64,000 bases of DNA from an uncultured bacterium (GTDB lineage Bacteria > Hydrogenedentota > Hydrogenedentia > Hydrogenedentales > JAEUWI01), in contig CAXBPH010000003.1 in NCBI GenBank assembly GCA_963977445.1, positions 1 through 64,000 of the forward strand. Direction: 5' to 3'. The position numbers were made by a program, and so were the translations under genes. The notes beneath the pieces were generated by a model, which was not told the DNA's origin, ran no database searches, and saw nothing but the letters and a program-made list of their open reading frames with translations. Positions 54,091-60,822 of the stretch are shown piece by piece. Numbering within the stretch: position 1 is the stretch's first letter; each line of letters starts with the position of its first letter.

Positions 54091-54294
54091 CTACTCTGCG
54101 GGATGCGCAGCCGTGATCGCGACGGGCTCCGAGGCCTCGCGGCTCTTGCGCATGAGTTCCTGGTCGATCATGCCAAGTTCGGCGGCCAAACCGGCTGCGG
54201 CTACGGACAGGCAGGTTTCTTCCACTTCCGCCGCGTGGCGCATCCATTCGGGAAAAGGAAACGCATCACTTGTGCTATTCATATCCATGGTCAT
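54091..54294 (-). CDS. Small hypothetical protein
   Basis: ATGA overlap with the upstream GNAT-like gene and AAAGG RBS. Confidence 0.5.
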   Translation of the reverse strand: MTMDMNSTSDAFPFPEWMRHAAEVEETCLSVAAAGLAAELGMIDQELMRKSREASEPVAITAAHPAE

Positions 54295-54857
54295 AGGTGC
54301 CTTTCCAGAATTCTCTCTGCATTGTCGCGCGAAAGTTCAAAGTACGTCAAGTTTTCGAAATCCACGTCAGGGCCCAACGGTGTCATCCAACACGCCCCTC
54401 CGTAGAAGGGTACGGACTGCGGCAAGGCATGTAGGCCCACTCGACCTCCAAAGCCTTCGTCCCAGCTTTGCCGGACGGCGCGCTCGAACAGGTGGGGACC
54501 AATCAGGCCGTATTTTCGCGTTTGCCCGATACCTGGAATGGTCCAGTTCCAAGGGGCGACTTCCAGGAAGTCTATATATACCAGCGGCTTGCCATGATCT
54601 TCGCCGAGTTGGGAGAAATGTGTCCCAGACTTGGTCAGCATGGCACCCTGCCATTCGTCGTCACAGACCACGGCGAATCCAGATGCAGGAACCAGGCGCA
54701 GGTGCTGCGCCTTGGCCCGCCAGTTCCAGTTGAGGCTCTGGGGTCGCTCGGAATAGGGAAGACCCGCGCGGGCTATTTCGAGAAGGATGCGGGAGCGTTC
54801 TGGAGTCCACACCGATTCCAGTGTCAGCAGGTCTTCAGGCGCGACGAGGAGGGCCAA
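54291..54857 (-). CDS. GNAT-like acetyltransferase, possibly N-terminally clipped
   Basis: VYIDFLEVAPWN, GFGGRVGLHALPQSVPFY; TTG start without a clear RBS. Confidence 0.7.
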   Translation of the reverse strand: MALLVAPEDLLTLESVWTPERSRILLEIARAGLPYSERPQSLNWNWRAKAQHLRLVPASGFAVVCDDEWQGAMLTKSGTHFSQLGEDHGKPLVYIDFLEVAPWNWTIPGIGQTRKYGLIGPHLFERAVRQSWDEGFGGRVGLHALPQSVPFYGGACWMTPLGPDVDFENLTYFELSRDNAERILERHL

Positions 54858-54876: not shown

Positions 54877-55260
54877 CTACTCACCCGTTGCGATGGCACT
54901 GGCGAAAGCGATTCCGCTCGAATAGCTAATACTCACATGCCAATCTAAGATACCGAGCTCATCAGAAAACTTTGCCACGTCATGATTTAGCCTTACATAT
55001 GGAGCCCCGTTCTTCCCCCGAAGAATTTCTATTCCATGCCACGTTATTTTTCCAGAAAACCCAGTACCAAGAGCCTTTGCGATGGCCTCCTTTGCGGCGT
55101 ATCTACCTGCATAGTAACGATAGTGGGCTGGGGGAGGGTCGGCGGCTTCTCGCTCGTCTATTGAGCAAAAGCAATTGACCCAGCTATTCGTACCTGAGTC
55201 AATTTCATTTCTTATACGTTGAATTCTTTCAATATCGATTCCGTGACCAATGATTCGCAT
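54877..55260 (-). CDS. acpS: AcpS-type 4'-phosphopantetheinyl transferase
   Basis: GHGIDI, AGRYAAKEAIAKALGTG, GAP, HVSISY. Confidence 0.88.
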   Translation of the reverse strand: MRIIGHGIDIERIQRIRNEIDSGTNSWVNCFCSIDEREAADPPPAHYRYYAGRYAAKEAIAKALGTGFSGKITWHGIEILRGKNGAPYVRLNHDVAKFSDELGILDWHVSISYSSGIAFASAIATGE

Positions 55261-55268
55261 GCATCCCC

Positions 55269-57152
55269 CTATTTTATTTCTCGAACTACGATATCTCTCT
55301 TGTCAAGATCCAGGTCAACAGTTCCGCCTCCACGAGATTTCAACTCTCTCCAAACTTTGAAGCCCTGCAGGATAGCGCGTTCCCATTCTCCCGTTGTGCA
55401 TGCTGACACCTCAAGATGAAGGACGGTATTCTTTATCATTCGTAACAATTCACTACTGACCGACAATTTACCCTCTAGGAAGTTGTAGTCACGAGCGTAG
55501 GCAAAAATCATTGCCGATAGTGCCTCTTCCGTGACAATCGCCCTTGCACCATCTTCCACTTCGTCAACTTTCGGATCACTCTTTCGCTTCGCTGTGAACA
55601 TTTTCCTGACGAGTGGAGACCAACCTAGAACCGCAGCGAAAGACAAATGGATTACATCGTGGAGTCCGTAACCATCGTTCTCGTAAGCGTTGTCAGTCAA
55701 GTCATCACCAAACTGCTGACCCTTGTACATCACCCGTATTTTTGGGTTGTTGAATTCGTCATGGTATGTGCTGAAATCGAGTGAAAAACTACGTGGAAAT
55801 TGTTCATTTTCGGGATATCCTGCATCGAACGGAGTTCGCGAAGGTAACGTGCCCCACCGTTCATCACATTTCGCCAAGTTAAGCTCGGCGATCTCCTTCA
55901 GATCGAGATTAAACTTCGTGGCGACGTTTGCCACATACCACAGCAAGTCTCCGAGTTCCTCGCTTAAGCGGTCCTTAAACAATTTATGCGTGTCACCGTC
56001 CCGAAGATATTTCTTGTATTCACTCAACAATTCACCGGATTCGCTTGCGAGGCCCAACAGAGGAATCGTTAGCGAAGACTCGTCCACACCGGGATTTTGA
56101 TCTGTCCCGGCAACTTTCTCTTGGTATTTGCCCATATCCATGGCTCTTGTCTCCAGGTTCACCCCCGTACTCGATCGATTTTCTTCGTTTGAGCTGGTAC
56201 GGCTGATTAATTCGTTTATGCCCCACTTGGGTGGGTACCAATAGTCGATTGGTTCTAAAATAGGCTTCAGCTTCTGCTTTATGCGACTTCGCCCTGATTT
56301 TCCGACGAATTCTGGATGTACAACTCGCGCGTACTTGTCTACTTCACAAAACAGGTTTTGGCAATCAATCAATTGAAGCGGCCTTCCCCATAAGTCGGAA
56401 AAATCTATGCCCAGTCGATTAAATTCCTCATCCTGCCTCTCGGTCACCCACCGGATTATTTGTGCAGTATCCTTCTTTCCCGGGTTTAGAAAGCACTTCT
56501 GGATTCCATCGAGTGCTCCGGGGCCTGCGACCACAAAGTCCATTTCAGAGAAGTTAATGATGGTGCTGTAGTTCAAATCGGTAACATACTGATAGGCTAG
56601 AAAGTTGCCTATCCCAGGTGATGACCGCATTGATTCGAACGCCTCTTCCATGGACTCCGAATCAGCAATTCGTTTCGGTAGCTCCGAAGACATCATGTAT
56701 TCAAGTAACTTAAGATGGTTCTGGTGTTTGAATGTTAGCGAAAATTTTCGGACGGAGGGCATTATATAGGCTGCGGAATAGATCCGCTGGCCTCGCGTCA
56801 TCGCCTGACTTAAGACACGGTCATATGCCTTGTATGAGTAATCGGCGTATGTGAGATGGCCAAGCTCATTCTCAAGTAGTTTCCATGTATCGATGCGATT
56901 GAAAAGTTTGAATAGAATTATGCGAAAAAACACTTCAGCTGGATGAGTCGGGAGGTCTTCGTTGTATATTACGTTCCTAATGAGATATTGGCTCACTCTG
57001 TCAGAGGCTCTGTAGGCGTTCGTGAATTTGTGGTTTTGAAGCACAGCGTCATCCGTCCACGGAAGAGGGCGCTTACTTATTCGTCGAAAGAAGATTCTCT
57101 GTCGCTCGGCGGCGAATTTCCAATACGTATCGTATACAGGAGTAGTTTTCAT
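55269..57152 (-). CDS. Fusion of aGPT-Pplase1/5-hmdU-kinase-helical-like domain, MazG pyrophosphatase and MazG C-terminal domain
   Basis: FAAERQRIF, FTNAYRASDRVSQYLI, HhH-like PGIGNFLAYQY, DCQNLFCEVDKYARV; MazG ESGE...EELGDLLWY; C-term GDDLTDN, HDVIH, EVEDGARA. Confidence 0.75.
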   Translation of the reverse strand: MKTTPVYDTYWKFAAERQRIFFRRISKRPLPWTDDAVLQNHKFTNAYRASDRVSQYLIRNVIYNEDLPTHPAEVFFRIILFKLFNRIDTWKLLENELGHLTYADYSYKAYDRVLSQAMTRGQRIYSAAYIMPSVRKFSLTFKHQNHLKLLEYMMSSELPKRIADSESMEEAFESMRSSPGIGNFLAYQYVTDLNYSTIINFSEMDFVVAGPGALDGIQKCFLNPGKKDTAQIIRWVTERQDEEFNRLGIDFSDLWGRPLQLIDCQNLFCEVDKYARVVHPEFVGKSGRSRIKQKLKPILEPIDYWYPPKWGINELISRTSSNEENRSSTGVNLETRAMDMGKYQEKVAGTDQNPGVDESSLTIPLLGLASESGELLSEYKKYLRDGDTHKLFKDRLSEELGDLLWYVANVATKFNLDLKEIAELNLAKCDERWGTLPSRTPFDAGYPENEQFPRSFSLDFSTYHDEFNNPKIRVMYKGQQFGDDLTDNAYENDGYGLHDVIHLSFAAVLGWSPLVRKMFTAKRKSDPKVDEVEDGARAIVTEEALSAMIFAYARDYNFLEGKLSVSSELLRMIKNTVLHLEVSACTTGEWERAILQGFKVWRELKSRGGGTVDLDLDKRDIVVREIK

Positions 57153-57200
57153 ATTAACCGGCCGAAAGTATACGAGTACAGTGGAGTCATTTTTGTCTTT

Positions 57201-58025
57201 CTAAAAATCGTCATGAATAGGCTCGGAAACTGTGCTCGTCACAGATTTGCAAAGTATTTTGTTAGAGCGCGTGATCAAGTCACGTGCATTGCGTACCCCC
57301 CAAGGAAATTGTTTTGAATCCTTAATTCTGGCTGGGCCTTTATCAATTTCGGCATGTGTGGAGACACAGGTGAGCGAACCGACGGTTAGGCCAGCTCGCT
57401 CTGCCACAAACGCCTGAAGTTGCCCCAAACCGATTAGATTGCCAAGGCACCGAGATATGTACGTGTGGTTACGGTACATTGCTGTAAGCATCAAGCCCTT
57501 GTTTGGATGACATTTAAAGCTCAAAAAACTGAGGCATTGTCCCCCCCATCGACTACGCCCATCCTCCAAGGGATCGTAAACCGCTAGCTCATATGCCGAC
57601 TTGAACTTCTGACCACCATTCTCGCGTTCTTGTAGCTTACCGATCAGCTGTTCTAGTGGATTGTATGTCTTGCCGAGCCTAGTCTGATGCCTGGTCATTC
57701 GCTCAAAGTACCTACCCCAGCGCCGGGTCTTCGTCAGTCTATCGAACGCTTCATGGTATTTCTCGTAGAACACCGGAGCCCCGTGCTGATTGTAGAGTGA
57801 TTGGGGAAAAATCGTGTTACAGACCGTGGATATGGGGTAGCAATCGTACTTTCGTAGAAAATCGTCTACCTCTGAAATGATTTCATTGTCAGTTGAATCG
57901 AACGATACGGGATTTTCTACATCAACAATAACGTTGTATCCCTCATCATTGTGCTTCATGATCTCCATTGCAGCCGCTACCCACGCTCGCGCACAACTCT
58001 TCTGTGTCGGGATGGCGATGTACAT
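57201..58025 (-). CDS. Divergent thymidylate synthase-fold protein
   Basis: GQCLSFLSF (catalytic Cys position); LTAMYRNH...LGNLIGL aligns with TS YQRS.D...PFN; VGSLTCVSTHA. Confidence 0.7.
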   Translation of the reverse strand: MYIAIPTQKSCARAWVAAAMEIMKHNDEGYNVIVDVENPVSFDSTDNEIISEVDDFLRKYDCYPISTVCNTIFPQSLYNQHGAPVFYEKYHEAFDRLTKTRRWGRYFERMTRHQTRLGKTYNPLEQLIGKLQERENGGQKFKSAYELAVYDPLEDGRSRWGGQCLSFLSFKCHPNKGLMLTAMYRNHTYISRCLGNLIGLGQLQAFVAERAGLTVGSLTCVSTHAEIDKGPARIKDSKQFPWGVRNARDLITRSNKILCKSVTSTVSEPIHDDF

Positions 58026-58037
58026 AGAAAGGTCTCC

Positions 58038-58685
58038 CTAATGCGTAATAAATGCGGAAAAGATTCGCGACCCGAGATAACGTTTGCTCAACCAGGCGTA
58101 GCCATGAAGGCCCCAGGATTCACCCCAACTGTTTCTGATAGCGATATACTTTTCGCTGTTTTTCGTAGCTGTTGCGACGGCAACAACAGCGTGTCGTCGA
58201 ACCGGGTCGATAGGCTCAGTTGAATCAACGATTCCAACGTTGTCCGGGGTATAGAACGCATCTGAGAACGACATCGCGAGGACGACGGGCTTGTCGGTTT
58301 GGATGCAGTCCCAAACGGCGTCAAATGTGGCGGTTAAGGCGCTAGTATGGCATTGGAAAAGTTGCCCTACGTTGTTGGGAGGCTTCCAGTGCGAAATTGG
58401 GCTTGGCAATGCCTTGAGGTAGGGCCAGGCGAGTTCGTTCGGTTGCCCGTCCCCAGTTAATGCAGAGCATACCCCCGGAATGGAAACACCCAAATCTGGA
58501 GAGCTTCTCTCCCACTTTATCGCGTAGTAGTATAGGTACTCACACGACAAGGGTTGCCAATTCCTCTCCAGTGCGGCGGAATGTGCGTCGCTCGTGGCGA
58601 ACGCCAGGCATGTCGGGCGCGCTCCTTGATCGCGAGCGCTGCCAAAATATGGTCGTAGGTCGTGACGGATAATCATCGAACTCAT
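58038..58685 (-). CDS. Papain-like (C1) cysteine peptidase, cytoplasmic
   Basis: RDQGARPTCLAFA (Gln, Cys), HAVVAV (His), IRNSWGESWGLHGY (Asn); no signal or prodomain. Confidence 0.88.
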   Translation of the reverse strand: MSSMIIRHDLRPYFGSARDQGARPTCLAFATSDAHSAALERNWQPLSCEYLYYYAIKWERSSPDLGVSIPGVCSALTGDGQPNELAWPYLKALPSPISHWKPPNNVGQLFQCHTSALTATFDAVWDCIQTDKPVVLAMSFSDAFYTPDNVGIVDSTEPIDPVRRHAVVAVATATKNSEKYIAIRNSWGESWGLHGYAWLSKRYLGSRIFSAFITH

Positions 58686-59695
58686 GGGCGACTCAACATT
58701 GCTTGGCGTTGAGCTGGCAGGAGGCCGGTTTGTAGTGGTCCTGTCAAGTTTACATCAAATTCGAGCGACTGTAGAGATTCATCATCTGAGAGCCATGGTC
58801 GCTGTTCACGAAGATTCACGTGACCGAGTGCCGACTGCTCCGGTTCAGCCACGATCTTACGTTCGACAATACTACCGATTGCATTTTCAGTCGAGCGGGC
58901 CTCTCGGATGTCCTCAACTATTTTGAGGCCGACTTTGGAGAGACTGTCAAACGACCACATGTACCCTGATGAAGCGTGTTCGATCAGCTCGAGAATCACG
59001 ATGTCGTGCGCGCTTCCTTCAATTAGGAGCCTTTGATCGCCCATGCCAAGCACCCATATATCCGCATACCATGATTCTGGGGTGTGCTGTTTGGTGAGCT
59101 GCTGCTTGATAGATTTTGGTTGGGTTTTGAGCAGGGAGTCTCGTACTGATTTCGAAATCGCATTGTGCTTGAGGAGCGCATGACAAGTCGCCGCATAGCT
59201 TGACCCCATCCGTAAGGCCAATTGGTAGACTATTTTCGGAGACGTTAGGTCTGAGCTCGCCCACCCTTGTTGACCCATGTGGTGCGTGATTAGCCATTTC
59301 GGTGTAAGCAGTTCGGAGGCAAACGCATTTGCCTGCAGTTCTATGAGATCAAGAGCTGCCCCGCTCTCAAACGGAGTTCGGTTTAGCCTGGATTCGTCAT
59401 CTAGACTAGACGAGTGCCCCATGACCGCGTGACCCAATTCGTGTGCTGCCGTGAAGCGCTGTACGGAAAGGGGGCGTTGTGTGGTCAACAGAACTCCAGA
59501 TCCATTTTCTTCCAAATAGCATCCGAGCAGCCCCTTCATCGGTTGGAACATGACAGGTATGTCGAGAGCTGCGAGAAGTCCAAACACATCGATGCGTCCC
59601 ACCCCACTCTTTACCTTTTTTTTGACACCATGGCTAGCATGTAATCGGTTAGCAGCAAGAGCCGCCTCGAGTATAGCCTTACGAACGTCTGGCAT
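58682..59695 (-). CDS. ImmA/IrrE family zinc metallopeptidase with C-terminal chagasin (I42)-like domain
   Basis: RFTAAHELGH, ELQANAFASELLTP; C-term LELIEHASSGYMW...IGS...QRPW. Confidence 0.8.
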   Translation of the reverse strand: MPDVRKAILEAALAANRLHASHGVKKKVKSGVGRIDVFGLLAALDIPVMFQPMKGLLGCYLEENGSGVLLTTQRPLSVQRFTAAHELGHAVMGHSSSLDDESRLNRTPFESGAALDLIELQANAFASELLTPKWLITHHMGQQGWASSDLTSPKIVYQLALRMGSSYAATCHALLKHNAISKSVRDSLLKTQPKSIKQQLTKQHTPESWYADIWVLGMGDQRLLIEGSAHDIVILELIEHASSGYMWSFDSLSKVGLKIVEDIREARSTENAIGSIVERKIVAEPEQSALGHVNLREQRPWLSDDESLQSLEFDVNLTGPLQTGLLPAQRQAMLSRP

Positions 59696-59698
59696 AGG

Positions 59699-60079
59699 TC
59701 AGCCCCCTTTTTGCGCTTTCCTCGATTTCAAGAATTCTGCGAATCTGGCGAGTTCGCTGCGATCTTCCGGGGCCAATTCAGATACCTGCCGTGCCAGATG
59801 AGCGACTTCCTTGTCAACTGGATGCGTGTCAGCGGTTTCACCGGTAAAAAAGTTCAGAGACCTCCCGTAGAGTTCGGCTAATTTCTTGAGTTCAAACACT
59901 TCAACTTTCCTCAGCCCTGCTTCCATCAAAGATAGCGCGGAACGAGAAGTACCTACTTTCGTGGCTATTTCGTTCTGGGAGAATCCAACATACTCTCGGG
60001 CTTCACGTAGCCGGTCACCAAGTACCTTTCTATCGCTATCACCTTCAACTTTTTTATTGTTGGGAGCTCTACTACTCAT
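59699..60079 (-). CDS. XRE-family HTH transcriptional regulator
   Basis: LGDRLREAREYVGFSQNEIA...RSALSLMEAGLRK; ATG at 60079 overlaps the upstream stop (ATGA). Confidence 0.9.
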   Translation of the reverse strand: MSSRAPNNKKVEGDSDRKVLGDRLREAREYVGFSQNEIATKVGTSRSALSLMEAGLRKVEVFELKKLAELYGRSLNFFTGETADTHPVDKEVAHLARQVSELAPEDRSELARFAEFLKSRKAQKGG

Positions 60080-60396
60080 TTGCTTCCCTTTCTTTTTTCC
60101 TCTTCTTGGCACAATTTATCTATACGCAGCATCATATCGTCAATTGCTTCATCAACACTTTGATAGCCGCCTTTTCGTATAGTCTTGTCTGGAGGTAGTC
60201 GAAAACCAACGATTGGCTCGATGGCTAACAAAGTGCTTACGACGGCAAAGGAGTCCAAAAGTGGCTCCCAAACCTTGCGCAACAGAGCCCCCTCATCCAC
60301 AATCTCGTCAAGCTTGTCAGTCAAAACTGCCCGAATTTCGCAAGAAGTCAAATGAACATCTTCGTCGATTTGAAACGCTGTGGATGTGTTTGCCAT
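60076..60396 (-). CDS. Hypothetical protein, first gene of the island operon
   Basis: AGGAG RBS 7 nt before ATG; stop coupled to the HTH start; follows a promoter. Confidence 0.65.
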   Translation of the reverse strand: MANTSTAFQIDEDVHLTSCEIRAVLTDKLDEIVDEGALLRKVWEPLLDSFAVVSTLLAIEPIVGFRLPPDKTIRKGGYQSVDEAIDDMMLRIDKLCQEEEKRKGSK

Positions 60397-60463: not shown

Positions 60464-60486
60464 ATATGTTAGATTTTCTAACATAT
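60464..60486. promoter_or_regulatory. Candidate XRE operator
   Basis: Perfect inverted repeat ATATGTTAGA-TTT-TCTAACATAT. Confidence 0.6.
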
Positions 60487-60488
60487 GG

Positions 60489-60571
60489 TATAGCCCAGGG
60501 TTTTGCTTGTTCGCGCTTGGGGCGTGAACTTGCTGCGCCCTGGGCTATAGTGTGTCACCCCGTTGGGGCTA
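60489..60571. repeat. REP-like palindromic element at the island boundary
   Basis: 12-bp inverted repeat tatagcccaggg/ccctgggctata plus cccc-gtt-gggg hairpin. Confidence 0.65.
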
Positions 60572-60574
60572 TTC

Positions 60575-60822
60575 AGATCGCCCTGTACGGATTCGCCGAA
60601 GAATGACACTTCGCCCGAAGTGGGCGCCAGCAACCCCATGAGCACCTTGATGGTCGTGCTCTTACCCGCGCCATTGGGCCCGAGAAGGCCGAAGGCGGCC
60701 CCACGCTTTATTTGGAGATTGAGGCCGTGGACACCATCTCCGTGTTCGTAGGTTTTTACGAGTTCTGAGATTTCGACCACCGACTCGGTCTTCACCGGGG
60801 CCTGTTTATCCATAACCTGCAC
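60575..60822 (-). pseudogene. Truncated ABC transporter ATP-binding protein (5' fragment)
   Basis: Walker A GPNGAGKST present; no Q-loop, signature or Walker B; the frame runs into the REP-like element and stops at 60478. Confidence 0.8.

Follow-up and report, generated by a model that had tools for sequence, protein, structure and literature searches.

The window analyzed here, namely the first 64,000 nucleotides of the forward strand of contig CAXBPH010000003.1 from an uncultured bacterium of the Hydrogenedentota (assembly GCA_963977445.1), encodes on its minus strand a 274-residue protein (57201..58025; open reading frame (ORF) call) with a predicted short form of the thymidylate synthase (TS) fold, which we term TSL (TS-like enzyme). 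Based on the active-site residues that it retains, we propose that TSL is probably a catalytically competent, homodimeric enzyme that modifies uracil nucleotides at C5 and belongs to a mobile cassette switched by a helix-turn-helix (HTH) regulator and an ImmA-type protease, and that it is distinct from the enzyme making thymidine monophosphate (dTMP) for the cell. We infer for it a substrate resembling deoxyuridine monophosphate (dUMP) and a one-carbon or other cofactor.

TSL on its own shows no match to Pfam even at E<=10, thereby staying outside the gathering threshold of the ThyA family (PF00303), and phmmer searches with it against the sequences of the PDB likewise return no matches. It does match the NCBIfam model TIGR03283 (thy_syn_methano; E 1.7e-10, 40.8 bits), over residues 85-226 only and far below the equivalog cut-off of that model (174.55 bits). 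For the family as a whole we used a 110-member profile comprised of TSL and 109 of the 269 other proteins listed, for which full-length, single-stretch matches were chosen and fragments left out. TIGR03283 is matched by all 110 aligned relatives at E<=0.001 (best 3.3e-19), a reach that no other curated sequence family has, with PF00303 being matched by 19 of the 110 at E<=0.01 (best 8.4e-07). The family profile run against PDB sequences gives weak matches (E 0.12-0.25) to 18 TS sequences and two unrelated ones. The methanogen-type TS of TIGR03283 is also a short form (201-position profile); however, it functions in core metabolism, whereas TSL occurs in a bacterial and archaeal mobile cassette. 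The family is large, with 1738 matches at E<=0.001 among 2016 word-sharing candidates, and clustering at 50% identity leaves at least 1012 representatives, of which 604 match at E<=1e-10; the closest homologs of TSL (59-64% identity) come from metagenome-assembled genomes (MAGs) of other phyla. We found no characterization of this family in the published literature.

The structural model places TSL in the TS superfamily. The initial annotation of this stretch, made from the sequence alone, had aligned a 13-residue segment (YRNHTYISRCLGN) with TS by eye and had called for a structural alignment as a check. An AlphaFold2 model computed from the 110-member alignment has a mean pLDDT of 94.0 and a pTM of 0.91, and a Foldseek search with it recovers 396 PDB chains at E<=0.001, with all of the approximately 45 displayed rows being TS-superfamily entries; the best-matching viral models in BFVD are thymidylate synthases and dCMP (deoxycytidine monophosphate) hydroxymethylases. 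The resemblance to TS exceeds chance, with all 110 relatives matching TIGR03283 and the displayed Foldseek rows all being of the TS superfamily. By VIA-align, the closest structures are those of the dCMP hydroxylase AfhB of phage HY126 (9iqu, Z 17.9 over 196 residues at a root-mean-square deviation (rmsd) of 3.0; 9iqc, Z 17.8), followed by the CMP hydroxymethylase MilA (Z 16.6) and many ThyA structures (Z ~15, ~198 residues, rmsd ~3.1), with aligned lengths of ~196-201 residues across these TS-superfamily structures and sequence identities to solved TS chains of 9-17% (9-15% for ThyA). Thus, the TS fold that the initial annotation had predicted is recovered with high confidence, and the model has the superfamily's α/β fold with a large central sheet. 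Residues 12-261 of the model span only residues 1-226 of the 264 of the E. coli TS, indicating that TSL is a short form that lacks the C-terminal folate-closing segment of ThyA.

A two-copy prediction of TSL yields an ipSAE of 0.74, as against 0.16 for the best control, with the runs agreeing in at least 82% of the contacts and the partner pLDDT being at least 83; among proteins of known structure, 20 of 30 that were solved as pairs attain the mark used for this score, as does one of 23 that were solved as single chains. The central-sheet strands 28-37, 166-186, and 216-224 make up the predicted interface together with residues 142-150, which lie where ThyA has R126'/R127'. TSL is hence predicted to form a TS-like homodimer via the central sheet, albeit that its score may reflect the likeness to solved TS dimers.

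Active-site equivalences were taken from two alignments, namely that of the family profile with PDB sequences and that by hhalign with four canonical, 264-residue ThyA proteins from TSL-carrying genomes. The latter references carry R21, E58, Y94, R126/R127, L143, C146, R166, D169, N177, H207, and Y209 at what we take to be the positions of the E. coli TS numbering (in part after PMC13326640). Conservation was scored over TSL and 252 other proteins of 200-320 residues (n=253), 22 of the 275 fetched having been dropped for length. Both alignments place YRNHTYISRCLGN (residues 184-196; 57438..57476, minus strand) without gaps and in register on the TS segment QRSxDxFLGxPFN, as the initial annotation had it, such that R185 corresponds to Arg166 (conserved in 251/253), T188 to the position of Asp169, and N196 to Asn177 (252/253). 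The Arg and the essentially invariant, uracil-type Asn that had been singled out in this segment are thus retained. The catalytic Cys is also retained, although in a different place from the one first proposed: the Cys within the segment, C193, is non-catalytic and not conserved (C114/A85/L29 of 253), and the Cys at position 168 of the equivalent TS segment is likewise non-catalytic, being Ala in the four ThyA references, whereas the actual counterpart of the nucleophile Cys146 lies 20 residues upstream as C164 in the motif GGQCLSF (57525..57545, minus strand; 252/253), which also contains G161 at the position of Leu143. Further upstream, the motif WGRYFERM (57696..57719, minus strand, coordinates computed from residue numbers; hhalign and hmmsearch) supplies Y106, the counterpart of the general base Tyr94, which is invariant (253/253), and R109 (251/253), a family-specific residue with no TS equivalent. 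Other strongly conserved positions include G104 (252/253), E146 and D155 (234/253 each), H187 (229/253), and K171 (226/253), and position 142, beside the R126/R127 columns, is basic in 167/253 (K90, R77).

The TS fold ranks among the most thoroughly studied enzyme scaffolds. To our knowledge, the only chemistries ascribed to it until recently were methylation and hydroxymethylation with folate, to which a flavin-dependent, hydroxylating branch was added in 2025-2026. According to PMC13326640, Asn versus Asp at position 177 selects for dUMP versus dCMP, a bulky Leu143 keeps water out with Asp or Glu being present there in the hydroxymethylases, and D169N is the mark of the flavin-dependent 5-hydroxy-dCMP synthases. 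When set against these chemistries, the residues of TSL read as uracil-type, yet with no clean fit to any of the three, because it has Gly or Asn at position 143, a variable position 169, and Asn at 177. Given that the family has kept the uracil-attacking machinery without the folate-binding Asp or the C-terminal lid, it may mark a further change of cofactor or reaction within the TS superfamily.

Several of these departures weigh against TSL being a competent enzyme of the conventional kind. As the initial annotation had noted, the Asp of TS is altered: the folate-binding Asp169 is not maintained as such, its position being T109/Y74/H18/F16/D14 of 253. The position of Leu143 is Gly or Asn in most members (G206/N27 of 253) and the Asp or Glu of known hydroxymethylases is absent there, leaving Asn177 as the only element of the hydroxymethylase signature (Asp/Glu at 143, D169, and Asn/Asp177) that TSL displays. 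The last ~38 residues of TS, i.e., the folate lid, have no counterpart in the VIA-align ranges. In the parts of the hhalign alignment that are of low confidence, the region of Trp80/Trp83 lacks a conserved aromatic counterpart, Glu58 aligns with the family-invariant Pro74, and Arg21 could not be placed in the N-terminal half. In addition, the His207-x-Tyr209 region corresponds to STHAEID, which lacks a Tyr in keeping with the altered motif first reported, the two alignments being one residue apart in register there.

The structural proximity to AfhB raises the possibility of a flavin-dependent C5 hydroxylase akin to AfhB and RB69 gp48, with its specificity switched from cytosine to uracil nucleotides. 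TSL and these 5-hydroxy-dCMP synthases both possess a short TS fold, and both have lost the folate Asp, a loss that PMC13326640 presents as a hallmark of that branch. However, going by the same paper, the phage enzymes combine a cytosine-specific Asp at 177 with Asn at 169, whereas TSL has Asn at 177 and T/Y/H/F/D at 169, position 188 being never predominantly Asn. Moreover, their lead in Z over MilA and ThyA is just 1-3 units, and the Pfam-checked cassettes showed no gene related to flavins. We accordingly regard a flavin-dependent hydroxylase as unlikely. Unlike for these phage synthases, no close TSL homolog was found in phages by tblastn against 50,697 phage records (E<=0.01), a single-protein pattern scan of viral contigs, or PHROGs; tblastn and pattern searches let distant homologs escape.

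The distribution of TSL sets it apart from the dTMP synthase of the cell. The genome of the window (94% complete) encodes ThyX (E 7.6e-39) and shows no PF00303 match, and canonical ThyA is encoded elsewhere (E ~1e-125) in four of the five other TSL-carrying genomes. In the window, the GC content over 55200-57999 is 0.44-0.49, as compared with 0.56-0.62 in the flanks, and searches with TSL as the query recovered the gene from none of eight genomes of the same genus and from one of 30 relatives (30% identity). The coexistence with ThyX here and with ThyA in other carriers, the low-GC island, and the absence from congeners together indicate that TSL is an accessory island or plasmid gene, thereby bearing out the earlier view that it is no housekeeping ThyA. 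Indeed, 23 plasmid records, of which 13 are conjugative, contain the gene, and there it is usually annotated as a 'hypothetical protein' beside a 'C1 family peptidase', and the family is spread across many bacterial phyla and one haloarchaeon.

An ordinary dTMP-making TS, be it a housekeeping enzyme or a spare copy, is hence very improbable. The naming of family members as 'thymidylate synthase' in some sources and the retention of the catalytic Cys, Arg, Asn, and Tyr would accord with such a role. TSL shares with ThyA the α/β fold, the predicted sheet-to-sheet homodimer, the catalytic Cys, and the equivalents of Tyr94, Arg166, and Asn177. However, TSL differs from ThyA in its low identity to solved chains, the lack of a PF00303 match, the variable Asp169, the apparently altered His207-x-Tyr209, and the missing C-terminal residues, and it is an accessory gene of islands and plasmids that resides beside a separate ThyX or ThyA.

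In the window, TSL is embedded in a minus-strand cassette with the order: carrier-protein-like gene, XRE HTH, ImmA/IrrE-I42, C1 peptidase, TSL, HMUDK_hel-MazG-MazG_C, and 4'-phosphopantetheinyl transferase (PPTase). The head of the operon is formed by a carrier-protein-like gene coding for a 106-residue protein (60076..60396) with a weak match to the acyl carrier protein model NF005480 (E 0.013). This is followed by a CapH-like XRE-type HTH regulator (59699..60112; PF13560/PF01381; PADLOC capH, 3.5e-15) and an adjacent CapP-like ImmA/IrrE metallopeptidase (58682..59695; PF06114, 9.2e-11; PADLOC capP, 4.7e-16), a pairing of repressor and metallopeptidase genes typical of CapH/CapP-type operons. 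The metallopeptidase bears a C-terminal chagasin-like I42 domain (PF09394, 5.8e-05; 23.7 bits, short of the required 27.2). Directly upstream of TSL lies a papain-family C1 peptidase of 215 residues (58038..58685; PF00112, 1.7e-11). Downstream, a 627-residue protein (55269..57152) combines HMUDK_hel (PF18723, 2.5e-114), MazG (PF03819, 5.4e-06), and MazG_C (PF18722, 8.3e-70), the last of which PMC13092281 terms a predicted nucleotide kinase, and the cassette closes with the PPTase (54877..55260; PF01648, 2.9e-16).

We surveyed 60 loci with tblastn (E<=1e-4), several of which are cut by contig ends and in which small genes are under-detected. The most constant neighbors are the C1 peptidase, directly upstream of TSL (57/60), the CapP-like and CapH-like genes (55/60 each), and MazG_C (51/60), followed by the carrier-like gene (37/60), HMUDK_hel (32/60), a UDG-family gene (29/60), PPTase (18/60), a dCTP-deaminase-like gene (15/60), and a metallophosphatase (9/60); thymidylate kinase (3/60), HEPN (2/60), and a second TS (1/60) are rare. 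Pfam checks on representative variants uphold these labels. The cassettes range from the full gene set, including the PPTase, on an archaeal plasmid of Haloarcula (L068) to a pared-down version on plasmids of Nostoc (L066) and Streptomyces (L067), from which the peptidase is missing and whose core is made up of carrier, HTH, ImmA, TSL, HMUDK_hel, and MazG-MazG_C. The UDG-superfamily gene, where present, has TSL on one side and a MazG-MazG_C gene of divergent orientation on the other, and it often takes the place of HMUDK_hel (e.g., L016:6775-7440 and L045:6828-7511, both minus strand). TSLs linked to HMUDK_hel and to UDG show no clear specificity switch when compared with each other; their catalytic sets are identical and only position 188 leans to Tyr in the UDG-linked versions.

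Single-polypeptide fusions of TSL and HMUDK_hel are found in five proteins (P0271-P0275). Four of these (P0272-P0275; 642-668 residues) have an N-terminal TSL domain 25-28% identical to that of the window and HMUDK_hel at ~332-624. In P0272, the equivalent of Arg166 is Ala, with the Cys and Asn being kept. No other evidence speaks as strongly as these natural fusions for a pathway common to TSL and the helical domain, and they lend support to the initial annotation's link between this enzyme and the downstream helical domain. A further candidate fusion (P0256; 674 residues, M78 + TSL + MazG + MazG_C) looks like a run-together gene call and was not used.

We read the cassette partners as being, throughout, enzymes of dU/dT nucleotides or recognizers of uracil-type bases in DNA, and by analogy the cassette mirrors the phage pathway for 5-hydroxymethyldeoxyuridine (5-hmdU). 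As laid out in PMC8989533, that pre-replicative pathway runs from a dUMP-modifying TS homolog through dNTP-pool enzymes and a kinase to enzymes acting at the DNA level. The TSL cassette would follow the same logic of parts, with a TS homolog for dUMP, dNTP-pool enzymes, a kinase, and a DNA-base protein of the HMUDK_hel/aGPT-Pplase type. However, in that account the pathway is phage-borne, whereas the TSL version is cellular or plasmid-borne, is switched by a repressor and protease, and includes a carrier protein and a peptidase. None of the P-loop 5-HMUDK, PLP, and radical-SAM genes turned up in the Pfam-checked TSL loci.

Our leading single guess for the product of TSL, although a tentative one, is 5-hydroxymethyl-dUMP. 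In the equally tentative reading that the initial annotation had put forward as possible, TSL would be a classical folate-dependent dUMP hydroxymethylase, converting dUMP and methylene-tetrahydrofolate to 5-hydroxymethyl-dUMP, as in the Bacillus phages with 5-hydroxymethyluracil, and feeding the kinase and HMUDK_hel. The invariant Asn196 is compatible with such a reaction, as is the small Gly161 at the water-excluding position of Leu143, following the rule in PMC13326640. So are the fusions, in that the phage relatives of HMUDK_hel act on 5-hmdU DNA, and the MazG, kinase-like, and dCTP-deaminase-like partners, which resemble the phage pre-replicative pathway (both from PMC8989533). On the other hand, Asp169 is not conserved, the folate lid is absent, Gly rather than Asp or Glu occupies the position of Leu143 (after PMC13326640), and the UDG-family gene, often without HMUDK_hel, accompanies TSL in 29 of the 60 loci.

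A further point against TSL as the hydroxymethylase comes from an operon (L010:62-4166, plus strand) that encodes, beside TSL, a dCTP-deaminase-like protein, a thymidylate kinase (Tmk), HMUDK_hel, and a second TS of 339 residues (TS2). TS2 keeps E58, W80, Y94, C146, R166, D169, N177, H207, and Y209 together with L143D, which makes up a full signature of the dUMP-hydroxymethylase type. Since TS2 bears this signature, TSL may perform another job in that operon, which runs counter to the function that we favor for it, namely its own modification of uracil nucleotides at C5.

The operon is also, in effect, a DS-4-like module attached directly to TSL. DS-4 ('NTTI' of DefensePredictor), which among tested systems is the nearest analog of the TSL cassette, comprises a thymidylate synthase, an adenylate kinase, HMUDK_hel, TIR, and a hypothetical protein, and scored as defensive in E. 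coli; its TS has 361 residues and matches PF00303 at an HHpred probability of 100 (PMC13092281). DS-4 and the TSL cassette each join a TS-family gene, HMUDK_hel, and a nucleotide-kinase-type gene in one operon, and the dCTP-deaminase-like, Tmk, HMUDK_hel, and TS genes of L010 form a near-identical module. They differ in that DS-4 has a TIR protein, whereas no TIR domain was seen among the Pfam-checked neighbors of TSL, and in that the TSL cassette has an HTH/ImmA switch, a peptidase, a carrier protein, a PPTase, and MazG, none of which is part of DS-4. TSL itself seems to belong to a different, short subfamily from the DS-4 TS.

By analogy, we propose a defensive role for the TSL cassette, because of its CapH/CapP-like switch, its patchy distribution on mobile elements, and its likeness to DS-4; TSL itself has no match in PADLOC or PHROGs. 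Such a cassette would be switched on when the ImmA-type protease cleaves the HTH repressor. Once induced, it would rewire the dU/dT nucleotide pool, with Cys164 of TSL attacking C6 of a uracil nucleotide whose C5 is then modified, Asn196 reading the uracil, Arg185 holding the phosphate, and Tyr106 serving as the base. Replicating (viral) DNA might then take up C5-altered or excess uracil, and the HMUDK_hel or UDG-family partner would act on such DNA with replication being aborted. The remaining parts would be the MazG pyrophosphatase with MazG_C, the DNA-base-recognizing HMUDK_hel and/or UDG-family protein, the carrier protein with its PPTase, and, in most versions, a papain-like peptidase putatively locked by the chagasin-like inhibitor domain. 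HTH/ImmA pairs also govern the induction of mobile elements. A self-protective DNA modification in the service of the host element is thus a conceivable role, which would tell against defense.

The placement of TSL right after the C1 peptidase in all but three of the surveyed loci, along with the loss of the cofactor-site residues, could also suggest a sensor: a non-catalytic or single-turnover TSL that binds or traps a uracil-type or phage-made nucleotide and thereby controls the adjacent peptidase. However, the whole catalytic set is under strong purifying selection (251-253/253), the peptidase-free cassettes of Nostoc and Streptomyces keep TSL beside HMUDK_hel and MazG, and the natural fusions join it to HMUDK_hel and not to the peptidase, all of which render a sensor quite unlikely.

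The lost folate site, when taken together with the nucleophile, base, and uracil-reading residues that persist, allows for a different chemistry in which TSL would act in a folate-independent group transfer. Here, the substrate would be a uracil nucleotide that already bears a substituent (e.g., 5-hydroxymethyl-dUMP from another TS or a phage); Cys164 would activate it to an exocyclic methylene, which a nucleophile, for instance the carrier's phosphopantetheine thiol, would then capture. The carrier protein and PPTase are conserved parts of the cassette, archaea included, the L010 operon supplies a separate hydroxymethylase, and PMC8989533 documents, for aGPT-Pplase2, the capture of a methylene of this kind by a thiol. 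Nevertheless, the scheme is purely inferential with no known precedent for a TS-fold enzyme, and the carrier-like and PPTase genes are recovered in 37 and 18 of the 60 loci, respectively, counts that are lowered by small genes and cut contigs; we thus hold group transfer to be improbable. Its most specific version, in which Cys164 makes an electrophilic C5-methylene uracil nucleotide and the carrier encoded in the same cassette captures it with its phosphopantetheine thiol, is a long shot. If true, it would yield a protein-tethered nucleotide or else, by way of HMUDK_hel or the UDG partner, an adduct between DNA and protein that jams phage replication; both the chemistry, for the TS fold, and the part played by a carrier protein, in immunity, would then be new.

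Returning to TSL as a probable uracil-nucleotide C5-modifying enzyme, it would be the conserved core enzyme of an inducible cassette. This cassette can be likened to DS-4, the only experimentally validated defense system with TS and HMUDK_hel, while having a richer architecture. Its product would reveal a cellular use of modified pyrimidine nucleotides against mobile invaders, and might offer tools for base modification. A bioinformatic study by Burroughs et al. from 2015 is reportedly cited by DefensePredictor for MazG/MazG-C/aGPT-Pplase systems. In the published literature, we found no TS-like gene with CapH/CapP, chagasin, or MazG_C, though Burroughs et al. 2015 or Figure 6F of PMC13092281 may sketch related systems.

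The I42 domain is present in all six Pfam-checked cassettes with the C1 peptidase, with some scores, including that of the window, lying below the Pfam cut-off, and in neither of the two without it (Nostoc and Streptomyces); the loci named for this comparison are the window, L012, L016, L017, L045, L066, L067, and L068. The co-occurrence of I42, borne by the ImmA/IrrE protein, and the neighboring papain-like peptidase suggests a built-in protease/inhibitor lock. With respect to the carrier, the positional counterparts of the window's gene in L045 and L067 match PP-binding (E 0.0014 and 1.2e-07, respectively), with the Streptomyces version (32.3 bits, annotated as 'acyl carrier protein') passing the Pfam cut-off. 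The carrier gene heads the operon and the PPTase ends or flanks it (cf. L067:5404-5664 and L068:3938-4585). In a Chryseolinea MAG (L057, 1-5000), the cassette is fragmented into numerous short ORFs and the region of the catalytic Cys drops out of the TSL alignment, pointing to either a decayed copy or long-read errors.

At the borders of the cassette in the window are two further minus-strand ORFs. The one following the PPTase (54291-54857; 188 residues) was considered as a cassette component and set aside, as it has no Pfam or NCBIfam match, no counterpart in the 60 loci, and a flank-like GC content of 0.58-0.60. The other (60478-60822; 114 residues) displays, by eye, a Walker-A-like GPNGAGKST motif and resembles an ABC ATPase in its N-terminal portion. 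Since this ORF abuts the low-GC island on the upstream side, it may be a gene that the insertion has truncated.

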